Shown in pieces: positions 13,476 to 58,366 of a DNA stretch of 64,000 bases. How positions within the stretch are numbered: position 1 is the first letter of the stretch; each line of letters opens with the position of its first letter. The notes under the pieces are model-generated. The model had not been told where the DNA came from. It saw only the letters and a program-made list of their open reading frames with translations, and searched no databases. This stretch comes from a virus, in the IMG/VR virus record IMGVR_UViG_3300042691_041392; one strand, 5' to 3'. The translations under genes were made by a program, and so were the position numbers.

Positions 13476-13477
13476 AA

Positions 13478-13513
13478 TAAAAAAAAACCACTCTTTTGAG
13501 TGGTTTTTTTTTA
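13478..13513. terminator. Bidirectional terminator
   Basis: A-run ACCACTC-tttt-GAGTGGT T-run. Confidence 0.85.
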
Positions 13514-13525
13514 TTATCATAAGTA

Positions 13526-51468: not shown

Positions 51469-51825
51469 ATGAAGATGAATAATAGATACCAACGAAGACC
51501 ATATTATAATAAAAATGCGGCTATTGATAAAAAGAATAGAGTAATAACAATACTAATAATTGTTATTGGTGTTTTACTTTATTTTTTAAATTATCAAAGA
51601 GAAACTATTAATGGTTTAGAAGATGAAAACCTTTCTAATTTACAAGAAATTAGTGATAACACTTGTAGAATAAAAGAATTAAAAGAGGAGAATGATAGTT
51701 TAACAAAACCAGTTATTATTGTTCAACCAAAAAAAGAAGTTAAGTTCTTTAAACCAAAAACAAAAGAAAAATTAGATACAAGTACAACTAAAACTCCAAC
51801 AGTTATAGTTGATACTTTGAGATAA
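51469..51825 (+). CDS. Single-TM coiled-coil membrane protein
   Basis: VITILIIVIGVLLYFL followed by a coiled coil. Confidence 0.55.
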   Translation: MKMNNRYQRRPYYNKNAAIDKKNRVITILIIVIGVLLYFLNYQRETINGLEDENLSNLQEISDNTCRIKELKEENDSLTKPVIIVQPKKEVKFFKPKTKEKLDTSTTKTPTVIVDTLR

Positions 51826-52906
51826 ATTCTTCTTCAATTAAAGAATTTTTTATAGAATTAATAAATCTTTTCGTAATACAAAGATTATCAATAGATCCAA
51901 TTGTAATTGGATCTATTTTATTAACATATCCATAATAAACAGAAATTTTATGATCTATTGTAGGGTAAAATCTATGCGTATGTGTATATGAAGCATATCC
52001 TTTTATAAACTCATTATCATAGTAGTCAAAACCATCCCAATTTTCGTATAAAAACTTTTTATTTAATTTTGTTGTGTTTCTAACTACTTTTTTATAAGTA
52101 ACCCAATCACTTAATTCACTTTCTGGTATAATAAGTCCATTTAATTCCTTAGTTAATTTAACTTTACTTTTAATAGACTCAACCTTACTGACATTATCAA
52201 CACCATACTTCTCTAAACAAGTATTTTTTGTTTTATCGACCATCTCACTCTTTTTATTATTAAATATTGACTTCCAATAATCAGTCTTTGATAAATATTC
52301 ATTTCCATATTTTTCTTTAAAAGTACTCTTAATCTTATCTAAGATAATATCTTTATTATCAAATAATAATCTTTTAAACTCATCTGTTTTTGAATAAGAG
52401 TCCACTCCATATCTACTAATTAAAGTCTCCTTTGACTTATTACGAAATTCATCTGATGACATCCACTCTCGATTTTTAATACGCATTATATCAGTCTTAA
52501 AATAGGAATCAACACCATATCTTTCCATCATAGTCTTTTTACCTTTTTCGGATCCCTTTTTAATACCTTTCCATTTTTCACTTTCAGTTGATTTAAATTC
52601 ACTTGTCATCGAATATGATCTAACACCATACTTCTCTAAACATGTCTTTTCTTTAACATGATTTTTACAATTAAAGCAAGAATAATATCCTTTGTTATTC
52701 CTATTCATATTTATTAGATATTTTGAATATGATATTGAACTTTCGGATTTACATATATCACATATAGCAGTTACTTTGGTTTTAGATCCACTTGGTAAAT
52801 GTTCAACATCAACAATTATTTCATTATCAATTAAATATCCCAACTCAGAATAGTGAGATTTATTTCTAATATTTATTTTAACTAAAACTTTGTCTTCTTT
52901 AATCAT
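51803..52906 (-). mobile_element. Homing endonuclease with T(C/M)xE(K/R)YGV repeats and a C-terminal HNH-like domain
   Basis: About five xxYGV repeats; PTIDHKIS...NLCIT...NSIK. Confidence 0.7.
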
Positions 52907-52983
52907 ATAAACTATATAAATTTTTATTATATATAAAAACTATAAGTCCCCATTAGGACTAAATTGAAAAAAAATTAAAAAAT

Positions 52984-54454
52984 ATGACTAGGGAAGAAAA
53001 AATTAAAGAACTAGAGTCATTAAAAAATAAAGCGAGCGAGTTGAAGAAAGAGGTAGACTACTACAACGCACTTCAACTCGCTCTTTTTTAACCCCCTCAA
53101 ATTTATTTTGAGGGGGTGATGACTAAAATTAGTTTTGAATGGATCTTACGGAGCATTCGCAACACCATACTTTATCTTGTTTAACAATCATGTGGCTGGT
53201 ACCATCACTGCACAAGGTAGAGATTTAACAAAGACAATGGATAGAGTTAATGAAGACTATTGGTATAATCAATGGCACTTAGACTTTGAACTACATAATA
53301 AATTAGGAATTAGAAATGTAACTCAAATACCTAATTCAGAACCGGTAAGTATTTATGCAGATACTGACTCATTATTTGTTTCTTTCTTACCAGCAATTGA
53401 ACACTCTGAATGGAAAAATATCTTTATTAATAAAAGTAATCTTGAAAGTATTGACAAAAAGTTTATTGTATTATCTAAAGAAGATGTCAATTTTAATAAC
53501 CCTAATTGTTTAGGATATGTAGATAAGTATAATGACTTTGAAAATTTATTATCAACCGATTATGAAATGATAATCATTGACGGACATTTTGCTAAAAATA
53601 GAGATTTGAATAAACTAATAAATTTTGGATCTCTTACTTGTGAACCCATTTGGAATTGGTCTAACGAATTGGATTATATACATGGTATTGATCATTTTAG
53701 ATATGCTGATTATTTCAAGACTTGTTTAGAAGAATACGCCGGATCTTTTGGAGTTGAAAATAAAGAAGACTTTGAGTTAGAACGAGTTTCAGAATCAATT
53801 ATATCAATCGCTAAAAAGAAATATATTCAACACGTTGTATTTGAAGATGGTATTCCTTATGATAGATTAACTTACTTATTCCCTAAAGGAGTTGAGTTAG
53901 TTAGATCATCAACACCTCTTTTTGCAAGAGAGAAAATTATCAACATCGTTAAATACTTATTTGAAAACTCAAATACATTTAACATAAAAGAGTTATTAAA
54001 ATTAGTTAAAGATTTAAGAAAAGAGTTTGAGTTAGCTGATATTGATGATATTGCAATGCAATCTTCTTGTTCTAACTATGATACTAAAGTTATTAATGAT
54101 AAAGCTTTACCATTAGAGTTTGTAACAGGAGCTCACTTTGCTGTTAAAGCATCAGCTCTTTACAACTACTTATTACACACTAATAAGCAATTTGCTGATA
54201 AGTATGAGATGATTAAGTCAGGTACTAAGATTAAGTATTACTATTGTAAGAATAAATCAAACGGTGATATCTTTGCTTATATTAGAGGTTCTTATCCAAT
54301 CGAGTTCGCTCCGCAAGTCGATTATACAACTCAATTTTATAAAGCAATTCTATCACCTATAAACTCAATTATTGAACCATTAGGAATGCCAGAGATTACA
54401 GAAAGATTATCAGTTGTATTAGACATATTTTCAGGATTTGGTATGAAATACTAA
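52984..54454 (+). CDS. Family-B DNA polymerase, C-terminal subunit of a split enzyme; coding sequence interrupted by a 40-nt gap (join 52984..53085 and 53126..54454)
   Basis: Joined reading gives ...YYNALQLALKLVLNGSYGAF (motif B), ITAQGR, YADTDS (motif C), AKKKY, KGVE; C-terminal LDIFSGF is clamp-binding-like. Confidence 0.88.
53034..53158 (+). other. Candidate programmed translational bypass element
   Basis: 13-bp stem 53034-46/53071-83; CTT TTT TAA; 11-bp hairpin 53091-101/53107-117; TGA TGA CTA AAA. Confidence 0.65.
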
Positions 54455-55131
54455 TCAGACCATCTATTACCCTTAATTAAATTTTCAGTCTTCCAAAGAG
54501 GCTGAAAATTTTTATAATGGTTTAACTCATATACTTCAGATTCACTTATAGCCCATGAAACCGGAGTTTTATGATCCAAATGCCACTCACCATGATTTTC
54601 CCAGGTCATACCATCTAAGAATTTACTTTGTATATAATCTTTAAATTCATCTATTGTACAACCTAATATAGATTCAGTTCTATACAACTTTTTATATCCC
54701 TTACTCACAATCGAACTACGTATTAAACCAGATATACTATCTTTTATCTTAAAAAGTATATCATTCTTCCTCTTTTCTGAAATATAATCTTTAGCATATT
54801 CTCTAATCTTATCTTTATTTTTCTCTCGCCACTTATAATTTAAATCTCTTCTTCTTTCATCATTATCAATGTGGTATTTTTTCTTATATTCCAATAAAGA
54901 ATCTCTATTTTTTTCGTAATGATTTTTAACACGTTCTTTTACTTTATCAATATTTTCTTCTCTATATTTTTTAACACCATCCTTTACCTTATCTTTATTA
55001 TTTTTATAATATTCTCTCTTATCTTCTAAAGAACATTCTTTACATCTACAACATAGACCATCCTTTGTTTTTTTATGTTTATGAAAATCTGATATTTCTT
55101 TTTCTTTTTTACATTTTGTACATTTTTTCAT
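54451..55131 (-). mobile_element. HNH homing endonuclease, paralogue of 30497..31273
   Basis: CTKC..CKEC; ILGC..DEFK; WHLDHKTP...LNHYKNFQPLW. Confidence 0.8.
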
Positions 55132-55183
55132 AATAATATTTTTTATTTATATATTAAAATAAAAAACCGGAAAATATATCCAT

Positions 55184-55216
55184 AAAAAAAACCACTCTTG
55201 ATGAGTGGTTTTTTTT
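55184..55216. terminator. Terminator
   Basis: A-run ACCACTC-ttgat-GAGTGGT T-run. Confidence 0.85.
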
Positions 55217-55217
55217 A

Positions 55218-56135
55218 TTAAAATGTTTTACCTTCTTGATCCTTTTTTGTGTATATAATAACTTTATCACCAATTTTAGAACAAAATAAATCAATATTAG
55301 AATACCTCCACTCTGTTGATGATGACTTAGCCACCATCGGACTAGATTTAACCTGCACTAATTTAAATTCATCGGAACTTAACTTCTCGATTATTAAATC
55401 AACTCCATAAACCATGTCAACTGGATCTCCATCACCACCTTGATATACACACTTATAAACCTTCTCACCATTCTTTTCAATAGATTCAAATTTGTTTTTA
55501 ACAAAAACTTCCACATTATCACCTATTGATGACATTCTTCTATTATTTGACACATAATATCTTATATCACTTACGTTTTTATTAATTAGTTCAACTAAAT
55601 TTTTCCCACTAAAAAAATTAGACAACTCAACTTTAAGAGATTTATCATCAAGTTTAAGAGATTTCGATATAATCGAAGTATCCTCTTTAGAGATAATATC
55701 AAAAATTAACTCCGCTAAATCAGAGTAGTTAGTATTTAACTTATTAACAGGATCATAATTACCATTGGAATCTAAAACTTGATTAAAGTTACTTATTGAT
55801 TTAGCATAGTAAGTACCGTCTGGTAATTTATCAATGAATTTAAAATCACTTTTATTATCAAATCTACCGGTATCCTTCAGGTATTTAAGTGGTATTTGAT
55901 ACTTAGGATCTTTATTAAAATCAATAACTTCAGACATAGAAGATAATATTTCCTCAACAGCACTTTGGAATCCAAGACCGTCATTTTTATAAATCCATGA
56001 CTTTAGGTTAGCAACATTTCTACAAAATTGAGTTTTAGCTGCTATTCCAATTTTATTAGAATCATATCCTTCTATACCACTCCCGGTAAAAAGATCGGCC
56101 TCATTTACAAATTGTCCATATTTAAAAATTTTCAT
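55218..56135 (-). CDS. Tagged protein with a C-terminal PD-(D/E)XK-like nuclease domain
   Basis: MKIFKYGQFVNEA; GDNVE...DMVYGVDLII...LVQVKS. Confidence 0.55.
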   Translation of the reverse strand: MKIFKYGQFVNEADLFTGSGIEGYDSNKIGIAAKTQFCRNVANLKSWIYKNDGLGFQSAVEEILSSMSEVIDFNKDPKYQIPLKYLKDTGRFDNKSDFKFIDKLPDGTYYAKSISNFNQVLDSNGNYDPVNKLNTNYSDLAELIFDIISKEDTSIISKSLKLDDKSLKVELSNFFSGKNLVELINKNVSDIRYYVSNNRRMSSIGDNVEVFVKNKFESIEKNGEKVYKCVYQGGDGDPVDMVYGVDLIIEKLSSDEFKLVQVKSSPMVAKSSSTEWRYSNIDLFCSKIGDKVIIYTKKDQEGKTF

Positions 56136-57275: not shown

Positions 57276-57998
57276 ATGATTAAAAGATATAATCAATTTA
57301 TTAAAAAAGTAAATGAAGCTGAAGAATTAGAAGCTCCTGTTAAACCAGAAGTTAAACCAGAAGTTCAACCAGCTCCAGCTCCAACAACAACACCAGATCC
57401 GAGAAGAGAAAGATGGAGAAGAGATGCTCCTTCTGTAAATCCAGATCCATTAGCAAGTGGCGAAGAAGGTGTTGAAGATAATTTAGAGTATTTACACGAT
57501 ACTTTAGAAGGTTCTCAATTAATGGGTAATATTCTTAAATATAAAGGACATGAAATTACATTACCTTCTGAAACAAATCAATTTGAAGTTGATGGTGTTA
57601 GAAAAATTAAAAAAGAAGGAAATAAATTAGTTCCTACTTCATCAGCAGAAGATGTAATTGAGTATTTAGAAAATCCTGAAGCTCAAGCTGAGGCTCAAGG
57701 AGCTCAATCAAAAAGACTTCAAGCACAGGCTCAACGAGCTCAAGGACAAGGACAGGCTCAAGTACAAGGTCAATATGAAAATTTCCAATCAGAGGATATG
57801 GAAGATGAGCATTTTGATGATGAAGTTGAAGATGAAGTAAATAGACCACCTTTTGACCCAGATAAAGATCAAATGGAGTTTGAAACACAAACTGGTAAAG
57901 ATCCAGAAGCTGAAGCTTTAGCAGGTGAAAAAGTTGATGTTGAAAAAACAGGACTTAGAGAATCTAAATCATATAGAAAAACTAGATATAAATTCTAA
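57276..57998 (+). CDS. Tagged low-complexity (Pro/Gln/acidic) protein
   Basis: MIKRYNQFIKKVNEA; PVKPEVKPEV; QAQ repeats. Confidence 0.65.
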   Translation: MIKRYNQFIKKVNEAEELEAPVKPEVKPEVQPAPAPTTTPDPRRERWRRDAPSVNPDPLASGEEGVEDNLEYLHDTLEGSQLMGNILKYKGHEITLPSETNQFEVDGVRKIKKEGNKLVPTSSAEDVIEYLENPEAQAEAQGAQSKRLQAQAQRAQGQGQAQVQGQYENFQSEDMEDEHFDDEVEDEVNRPPFDPDKDQMEFETQTGKDPEAEALAGEKVDVEKTGLRESKSYRKTRYKF

Positions 57999-58000
57999 AT

Positions 58001-58032
58001 AAAAAAAACCACTCAAAAGAGTGGTTTTTTTT
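58001..58032. terminator. Bidirectional terminator
   Basis: A-run ACCACTC-aaaa-GAGTGGT T-run. Confidence 0.85.
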
Positions 58033-58033
58033 A

Positions 58034-58366
58034 TTAATTACTTTCCTCACTATCAGGATTTGACTGAGTTACACTATCCGTAATTTGATCATTAACAGAT
58101 GTTTTCTCTTTTTGTATCTTATTTATGATATATCCAGAAACTGCAAACTCAGCAGCTGCCCATAAGATAAACTCACCCATAGTTAATTTATCATATTTCT
58201 GTAAAAGGAAGAATATCATTCCCCATTGAGCAATGATGAATGCTATACCAGATTCAATTCTTTTCTTAGAAAAGTAAGAGTTTTTAGTTGAATAGATGTT
58301 CAATAATTCGGTTAAAATCCATTTGAAATTACTCCAACCAAAGAACATTTTTTTGTTTTTTTCCAT
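58034..58366 (-). CDS. Two-TM membrane protein, possibly a holin
   Basis: SKKRIESGIAFIIAQWGMIFFLL and a second hydrophobic helix. Confidence 0.45.
   Translation of the reverse strand: MEKNKKMFFGWSNFKWILTELLNIYSTKNSYFSKKRIESGIAFIIAQWGMIFFLLQKYDKLTMGEFILWAAAEFAVSGYIINKIQKEKTSVNDQITDSVTQSNPDSEESN

Follow-up and report, generated by a model that had tools for sequence, protein, structure and literature searches.

A covarying stem at a coding gap in the split DNA polymerase gene of huge phages: a candidate element of translational bypass

The gapped polymerase gene and the stem before the gap

The window analysed here is the whole 64,000-nucleotide stretch of the virus record IMGVR_UViG_3300042691_041392 (IMG/VR), given as one strand. 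The subject is a gene for the C-terminal half of a family-B DNA polymerase (PolB), in which a short gap interrupts the coding sequence and is immediately preceded by a strong stem (stem-loop 1, SL1). The G+C content of the window is 27.8%, and its nearest relatives in databases are the uncultured huge phages LR745206.1 and LR756502.1 (635-642 kb). PolB is split into two genes across this whole clade. The two halves in LR756502.1 (254087-255361 and 120543-121892; L075, L076) lie on opposite strands with 133 kb between them, and the start of the C-half gene falls in the fingers helix of the polymerase. The features around the gap are as follows.

52984-53085, plus strand: 5' coding segment of the PolB C-terminal-half gene; 34 codons, MTREEK...DYYNALQLAL, take-off codon included
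53034-53046, plus strand: 5' arm of the 13-bp stem SL1; codons (GC)G AGC GAG TTG AAG, A-S-E-L-K
53053-53064, plus strand: inner mini-hairpin GTAG-ACTA-CTAC in the SL1 loop (GTAG 53053-56, CTAC 53061-64)
53071-53083, plus strand: 3' arm of SL1; CTT CAA CTC GCT C (L-Q-L-A-L), its last base being base 1 of the take-off codon
53083-53085, plus strand: putative take-off codon CTT (Leu), beyond which colinearity with gapless homologues breaks off
53086-53125, plus strand: coding gap of 40 nt, the landing codon counted in as for phage T4
53091-53117, plus strand: gap hairpin (stem-loop 2, SL2) of 11 bp, with five C at 53092-96 and five G at 53112-16; begins 6 nt past the take-off codon
53110-53120, plus strand: G-rich, Shine-Dalgarno-like tract GAGGGGGTGAT; its G-run ends 6 nt ahead of the landing codon
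53123-53125, plus strand: putative landing codon CTA (Leu), where DNA homology with gapless relatives picks up exactly
53126-54454, plus strand: 3' coding segment of the PolB C-half, with motif B KxxxNGSYG, YADTDS and the C-terminal tail

The open reading frame (ORF) that starts at the ATG at 52984 reads, after 34 residues, on into TTT TAA. These 34 codons align colinearly with the start of uninterrupted genes in LR756502.1, LR745206.1 and many IMG/VR loci. Forty bases past this first segment, a different frame (CTA AAA TTA...) encodes LKLVLNGSYGAF... and continues via YADTDS to 54454; translated from 53126 it reads KLVLNGSYGAF.... This 3' segment matches PF00136 (1.6e-14) and positions 516-839 of the 856 positions of phrog_262 (3e-44). 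The homologous gene in LR756502.1 and LR745206.1 is an unbroken ORF of 474 codons, ...YYNA(M/L)QLALKLVLNGSYG.... Since the homologues are unbroken and DNA similarity resumes at CTA 53123, positions 53086-53125 constitute a 40-nt insert in the window. The insert is absent from the related loci L001, L002 and L083. In two relatives that are 98% complete the gapped gene is the sole PolB C-half, and it must therefore be expressed.

The gap is laid out as TTT TAA, the hairpin, TGATGA and CTA, and several ways of decoding it were considered and rejected. Simple frameshifting fails on the stops, which close all three frames inside the gap. Recoding of a stop codon was set aside because TAA, TAG and TGA are all used to end ORFs in the window, and if TGA were read as a residue, a frameshift would still be required and motif B would gain 13 internal residues. 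For re-initiation past the gap, the only in-frame start-like codon is TTG 53135, which lies inside motif B and is CTT or TTA in relatives; ATG 53119 is out of frame. Take-off from the TTT just before the stop would have no matching landing codon and would put an extra residue into motif B. A dispersed repeat or miniature inverted-repeat transposable element was rejected as well. In five related genomes (0.24-0.64 Mb), hairpins of five C and five G are essentially confined to the polymerase site, the one exception being an intergenic, terminator-like hairpin between convergent genes. The heptamer ATGACTA at the end of the gap (53119-53125) is a copy of the first 7 nt of the gene (52984-52990), and its ATG opens only a 21-codon out-of-frame ORF.

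The original prediction was that a perfect 13-bp stem had been written into the codons before the gap and ended at the take-off codon. Both parts were confirmed. Positions 53034-46 are the exact reverse complement of 53071-83 across a 24-nt loop, and the last base of the 3' arm is the first base of CTT 53083-85. When RNA folding, proposed as a check, was applied to 53030-87 (58 nt), it gave -26.9 kcal/mol (z = -6.9), and none of 200 shuffles was as good. Folding of 53020-53140 gave two neighbouring hairpins, SL1 and the gap hairpin, at -48.6 kcal/mol (z = -8.7). Of the 40 perfect inverted repeats in the window that are 10 bp or longer, these two are the highest in G+C. Nearly all the remaining repeats are A-run/T-run hairpins of terminator type, mostly with tetraloops.

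The codons of SL1 had been described as unusually G/C-ending, and they are. G+C at third codon positions is 58% over the 19 codons of SL1 vs 16% for the ORFs of the window, and the arms hold the rare codons AGC, CTC and GCG (0.9, 1.0 and 2.2 per 1000 window-ORF codons, respectively). As a null model, synonymous codons for the same peptide were redrawn 200,000 times by the window's own usage. The redrawn sequences formed 6.1 pairs on average and at most 11, compared with the 13 observed, with a minimum free energy of -6.6 +/- 2.1 kcal/mol. Because the G/C-ending codons are rare and synonymous redraws never reach 13 pairs, SL1 is not due to chance and is written into codon choice. The stem also demands Glu at a position where several gapless relatives have Asp.

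A further proposed element, the small GTAG-acta-CTAC hairpin enclosed by the stem, is present in the SL1 loop but is not specific to the gap. It is equally pairable in gap-bearing (76%) and gapless (77%) loci, and it was rejected as a functional part and regarded as incidental.

The stem and the gap among related loci

The comparison draws on 152 related loci, found by scanning IMG/VR and metagenome contigs. About half of these carry an insert of 36-48 nt, always within the same nine-codon stretch of PolB. The inserts follow QLA, QLAL (as in the window), KLV or NGSY, with a few after NG or NGS, so that at least five positions are used. The gap of the NGSY class sits 8 codons further downstream than that of the window.

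For the comparison of the stem, all sequences were set in the register of the window. Watson-Crick pairs numbered 9-13 in each of the 35 loci gapped after QLA or QLAL, 1-10 (mostly 3-6) in 80 gapless loci, and 1-7 in 29 loci of the NGSY class. Over the 23 distinct sequences of the QLA and QLAL classes, pairing in the helix amounts to 89.6%, and both sides have changed at 7 of the 13 pairs. None of 500 shuffles reached these values, and registers slid along the alignment gave 29-43% pairing. A smaller version of this test used 19 sequences. The same columns are paired at the control level in 21 gapless sequences (44%) and in 19 NGSY-class sequences (41%). Equal presence of the stem in homologues that lack the gap had been named in advance as a result that would count against its selection, and it was not seen. 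When the 3' arm was forced to pair, folds at the take-off site had median energies of -23.7 kcal/mol for QLAL, -22.9 for QLA and -8.1 for gapless loci.

Some of the compensatory changes alter the protein. The pair E(GAG)/L(CTC) has become Q(CAA)/L(TTG) in L044, S(AGT)/T(ACT) in L034 and K(AAG)/L(CTT) in L050. A further compensation, from AAG/CTT to CAA/TTG, was found in L039. In the loci gapped after KLV (three distinct: L031, L041 and L138), stems of 10-15 bp are formed in a different register, with a 3' arm whose end coincides with the last base of their own take-off codon, GTT, or lies up to 4 nt short of it.

The original prediction had held that the coding sequence is under selection for structure right at the gap and that the insertion is not a random one. 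This is now well supported by three lines of comparison: the absence of the stem from gapless and NGSY loci, the compensatory changes, and the stems of the KLV class set in a new register. As judged from these alignments, it is well supported that the stem is selected and is kept by paired changes only where a gap lies at this site. Four gapless loci (L093 and L097, and also L030 and L103) keep 9-10 of the 13 stem pairs together with G/C-ending codons. Gapless stem-keeping alleles encode ASDLK with AGC GAC CTG AAG. These four loci may be former carriers of the cassette that have since lost the gap.

That the stem is a neutral passenger, or that the gene is simply broken or misassembled, might be considered for data derived from metagenomes. 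The same architecture is repeated in dozens of independent assemblies, however, and both reading-frame segments are intact and conserved. The gapped gene is also the only C-half gene in near-complete genomes, and the covariation excludes neutrality. This explanation is hardly credible.

Another possibility is that SL1 is a selected RNA structure of the cassette that does not drive sliding of the ribosome: it might slow ribosomes ahead of the gap, limit or attenuate expression of the PolB C-half, or stabilise the mRNA. The stem is strong, and in the window TTTTTT directly follows its 3' arm, so that stem and T-run together look like an intrinsic terminator. The U-tract is not conserved, however: the QLA gaps continue with GGATAA or CGATAA. 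A 24-nt loop is atypical for a terminator, and none was called there in the scan of the window. On these three grounds an intrinsic (rho-independent) terminator was rejected. A general stabilising or attenuating role would leave unexplained that the 3' arm invariably sits directly against the take-off codon and, in the KLV class, has moved along with that codon. We consider a non-sliding RNA role unlikely.

The gaps themselves were compared in 45 distinct elements, which share a plan: a take-off codon, a spacer, a hairpin formed by a C-run and a G-run, 5-9 A-rich bases and a landing codon. The spacer between take-off codon and hairpin is 6 nt in 36 of the 45, and 37 of the 45 have 5-9 nt from the G-run to the landing codon. 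A stop is adjacent to the take-off codon in 5 elements and lies one codon later in 33. The stems of the gap hairpins vary in sequence from element to element, with pairing kept. The QLAL class has CTT (once CTC) at take-off and CTA at landing in 18 of 18 distinct elements. The same amino acid is found at both ends of the gap in the QLA (Ala/Ala, 4/4) and KLV (Val/Val, 3/3) classes, and Tyr/Tyr ends (TAT or TAC before the resumed GGA) occur in 8 of the 18 distinct NGSY elements.

These end codons bear on a further explanation, in which the 40 nt are removed from the mRNA, by a micro-intron or by cutting and rejoining, and SL1 stacked on the gap hairpin is the processing signal. Two strong neighbouring hairpins do abut the 5' boundary of the gap. 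The take-off codon is followed by the common codon TTT, and a matched landing codon, which splicing would not need, is missing from 10 of the 18 NGSY elements. Against removal, the end codons are synonymous in 25 of 25 elements at the other three positions, where only the wobble base differs, as expected for re-pairing of a tRNA. The near-constant stop 0-1 codon past the boundary and the G-run 5-9 nt before resumption are signals of a translational type. The NGSY gaps, which lack SL1, would need the same machinery. Inserts of 36-48 nt are also far too short for group I or group II introns. Removal from the mRNA is therefore regarded as improbable.

The neighbouring endonuclease gene and the mobility of the gap

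Directly upstream of the polymerase gene, on the opposite strand, lies a gene of the following kind.

51803-52906, minus strand: free-standing homing endonuclease gene with a Zn-finger N-terminus, DUF7487 repeats and a C-terminal H-N-H-like motif

Its product matches phrog_3339 and phrog_12131, labelled 'homing endonuclease', and DUF7487 (5e-17). A Pfam/PDB sequence search for its catalytic family returned only DUF7487 and the PHROG label, and the H-N-H motif was read by eye. A homologue of this gene lies directly upstream of the polymerase gene in 28 distinct gap-bearing loci, which include all classes, and is missing from that place in 17 others; among gapless loci the count is 0 of 52.

In a tree built from the downstream polymerase segment, loci of the different gap states are interspersed, and almost identical polymerases can be in different states: L015 is gapless and L020 of the NGSY class, L023 is gapless and L065 of the QLAL class, and L067 and L068 are of the QLAL and NGSY classes, respectively. 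The closest relative of the window, L083 (93% amino-acid identity), is gapless and lacks both flanking endonuclease genes. At the DNA level the gene of the window is about 90% identical to that of L083 except in nt 31-90 (63-66%) and in the gap. The divergent patch and the hairpin match L090, a gapped locus with the endonuclease upstream. Since the patch resembles L090 and the rest of the gene resembles L083, SL1 and the gap look like one conversion tract. From this distribution in sequences, the gap, the stem and the upstream HNH homing endonuclease appear to travel together as a mobile cassette.

A further possibility is that the inverted repeat acts in DNA, either as a hairpin or cruciform in homing or recombination of the cassette or as a recoding of the gene against its own endonuclease, with the RNA fold as a by-product. 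The apparent conversion tract beside the endonuclease gene agrees with this, and the wobble statistics of the helix show no preference for plus-strand RNA. Recoding for immunity would account for the odd codons but not for compensatory changes between arms 24 nt apart. Moreover, cassettes of the NGSY class have homologous endonucleases but no such repeat. A role in DNA is thus quite improbable.

At its 3' end the polymerase gene shares 4 nt with a second endonuclease-like gene (54451-55131, minus strand; phrog_1035 endonuclease VII, 7e-22), which L008 and L022 also carry and L083 lacks. Between the homing endonuclease gene and the start of the polymerase gene, a small G+C hairpin AGTCCCCATTAGGACT (52945-52960) was called terminator-like on the minus strand.

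Translational bypass as the proposed mechanism

Matched codons at the ends of the gap, a nearby stop, a hairpin, a G-run, conserved flanks and linkage to an endonuclease combine at this locus, and on that combination a bypass of the kind known from gene 60 of phage T4 is inferred. SL1 is then probably the 5' stem-loop of this bypass, refolding behind a sliding ribosome. The ribosome would stall with peptidyl-tRNA(Leu) on CTT when it runs into the C5:G5 hairpin at the mRNA entrance. In the geometry taken from the sequence, the 3' arm of SL1 spans -12 to +1 relative to the P-site codon at take-off, and the ribosome footprint places it inside the ribosome. The 3' arm would thus lie in the mRNA channel, with the 5' arm and the 24-nt loop already outside, and SL1 would therefore be open at that moment. 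As sliding begins, the 3' arm would emerge and zip with the waiting 5' arm (about -27 kcal/mol). The re-formed 13-bp helix would block backward movement and bias sliding forward across the gap. The tRNA would then re-pair at CTA and decoding would restart at AAA 53126, giving ...YYNALQLAL-KLVLNGSYG.... The gap would have arrived with the upstream HNH homing endonuclease. By analogy with MobA and gene 60 of T4, the gap probably destroys the endonuclease's target site in the conserved DNA of motif B.

Elements of the 5' stem-loop of gene 60 fold on leaving the ribosome and may prevent backward movement (PMC6551183; bioRxiv 10.1101/2024.12.09.627546). The parallel with this stem-loop that was drawn in the original prediction is apt, and the stems of the KLV class also end at their own take-off codon. 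In both T4 gene 60 and the window, an essential replication gene is split and its downstream fragment has a short non-coding gap early on, at codon 34 in the window and at codon 46 in gene 60 (a 50-nt gap with a mini-Shine-Dalgarno and matched GGA codons). They also have in common matched end codons, a stop near take-off, a gap hairpin, an upstream stem-loop and a G-rich tract some 6 nt ahead of the landing codon, and in both an HNH homing endonuclease gene lies immediately upstream. The host genes differ, however, with motif B of PolB in the window and a topoisomerase in T4, and no sequence likeness between the cassettes is seen by eye. The gap hairpin begins 6 nt past the take-off codon in the window, whereas in T4 it contains that codon. 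The stop usually comes one codon later than in T4, and the endonuclease gene is on the opposite strand. The 5' stem, which abuts the take-off codon, is both far stronger and closer than in T4, where the upstream hairpin (L163:365-391) ends 9 nt before GGA and a 74-nt fold gives -15.3 kcal/mol (z = -0.9).

Cassettes with MobA elements in the topoisomerase genes of myoviruses (10.1101/2022.08.31.505936) are alike in being mobile combinations of endonuclease and bypass sequence scattered on the tree of the host gene. In both systems every locus with the endonuclease has a gap, some loci keep a gap after losing the endonuclease, and the take-off and landing codons differ by the wobble base only. 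The MobA cassettes have been described only in Topo2L, inserted within +/- 1 codon, whereas the PolB gaps use at least five positions over 9 codons. The 5' stem-loop is reported not to be conserved between MobA clades; in PolB it is the best-conserved element outside the gap for three positions.

The 'byp' elements in mitochondria of Magnusiomyces capitatus (PMC5009743) resemble the PolB gap in being short inserts, rich in G+C within an AT-rich genome, which translation skips, as is proposed for PolB, without Shine-Dalgarno (SD) pairing. The byps are spread over many genes (81 instances) and are reported to depend little on mRNA context (PMC5009743). The PolB element, in contrast, occupies one site region of one gene and is tied to a homing endonuclease and, at the position of the window, to a flanking 5' stem. 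In a full-text search of the literature, descriptions of bypass cassettes were limited to topoisomerase genes and yeast mitochondria, and none of the PolB gap family was found.

Petrov, Ratnayaka and Karam are said to have described, in 2010, split gp43 polymerases (43A/43B) in T4-related phages such as Aeh1. Like the clade of the window, these phages would encode PolB as two genes. We know of no coding gap described in the split gp43 genes.

Several observations weigh against a bypass of the gene 60 kind, or against parts of it. In the window CTT is followed in the A site by TTT, a common codon (38 per 1000 codons), with the stop one codon further on; an obvious slow A-site codon, as in T4, is not seen. 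An SD-like motif was found upstream of 0 of 60 ORFs of the window, and SD-guided landing is therefore doubtful. CTT and CTA need one tRNA(Leu) that is able to pair with both. In the gene 60 family the 5' stem-loop is not conserved between clades, and Manning and Atkins found that the structure is not conserved outside the T4 clade (10.1101/2022.08.31.505936). In the helix of SL1, G.U and A.C combinations number 12 and 19, which gives no strand signal and does not tell an RNA hairpin from a DNA hairpin. The NGSY class is the most discordant. It has no comparable 5' stem at take-off (-9.6 vs -7.7 kcal/mol in gapless loci), and 10 of its 18 distinct elements (L019, L020, L022, L024, L029, L033, L035, L043, L068 and L128) lack a matched landing codon, having AAC (four times), AAT, GAC, TAA (twice), AGC or CAA instead. 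Since gaps of this class lack the stem, and many of them a matched codon too, such a stem is not required universally. Most of these landing codons retain two of three bases, and two-out-of-three pairing as in mitochondrial byps (PMC5009743) may apply to this class.

On balance, though with somewhat less assurance than for the role of SL1, the gapped genes appear to represent an independent, non-homologous family of long-range bypass, located in PolB of huge phages whose genes lack SD motifs, in which a strong 5' stem-loop is a selected part of the mechanism that tracks the take-off position. What is new here is the gap-dependent covariation of the 5' stem and its tracking of the take-off site.

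Long-range bypass is known almost entirely from T4 gene 60 and the related topoisomerase genes, a family in which the 5' stem-loop has proved helpful in experiments but is not conserved, so that its biological role is in doubt. Dozens of natural variants in another essential gene offer a ready mutational series for testing how refolding of mRNA powers sliding, on ribosomes that may do without SD pairing. If the proposed mechanism is true, the covariation would be the first evolutionary evidence that refolding of mRNA at the exit channel drives forward sliding, and the NGSY class, with no stem and with unmatched landing codons, would be a natural contrast for dissecting the real requirements. 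The gaps also matter for annotation, which will treat such polymerase genes as broken or report two ORFs, and they bear on how a homing endonuclease can enter an invariant catalytic motif and leave the gene functional.

Some minor features of the window and its relatives were also noted. The leaders of the ORFs in the window are A-rich, often with TATATA followed by an A-run, and such SD-free leaders fit a host with SD-independent initiation such as Bacteroidota. No tRNA genes were found in the window. Perfect hairpins built of an A-run, a short G+C segment, a tetraloop and a T-run occur at about 20 sites (e.g., 13476-13515, 55182-55218 and 57998-58035), and several of them have AAAAAAACCACTC in common. 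These recurring hairpins look like bidirectional terminators. In a number of relatives (L041, L050-L052, L057, L063 and L071-L073) the ORF of the polymerase C-half stops again about 185-190 codons past motif B, and in L050-52 and L061 the tblastn match is about 500 nt longer. The second stop and the longer match suggest an additional downstream split or insertion in those relatives.

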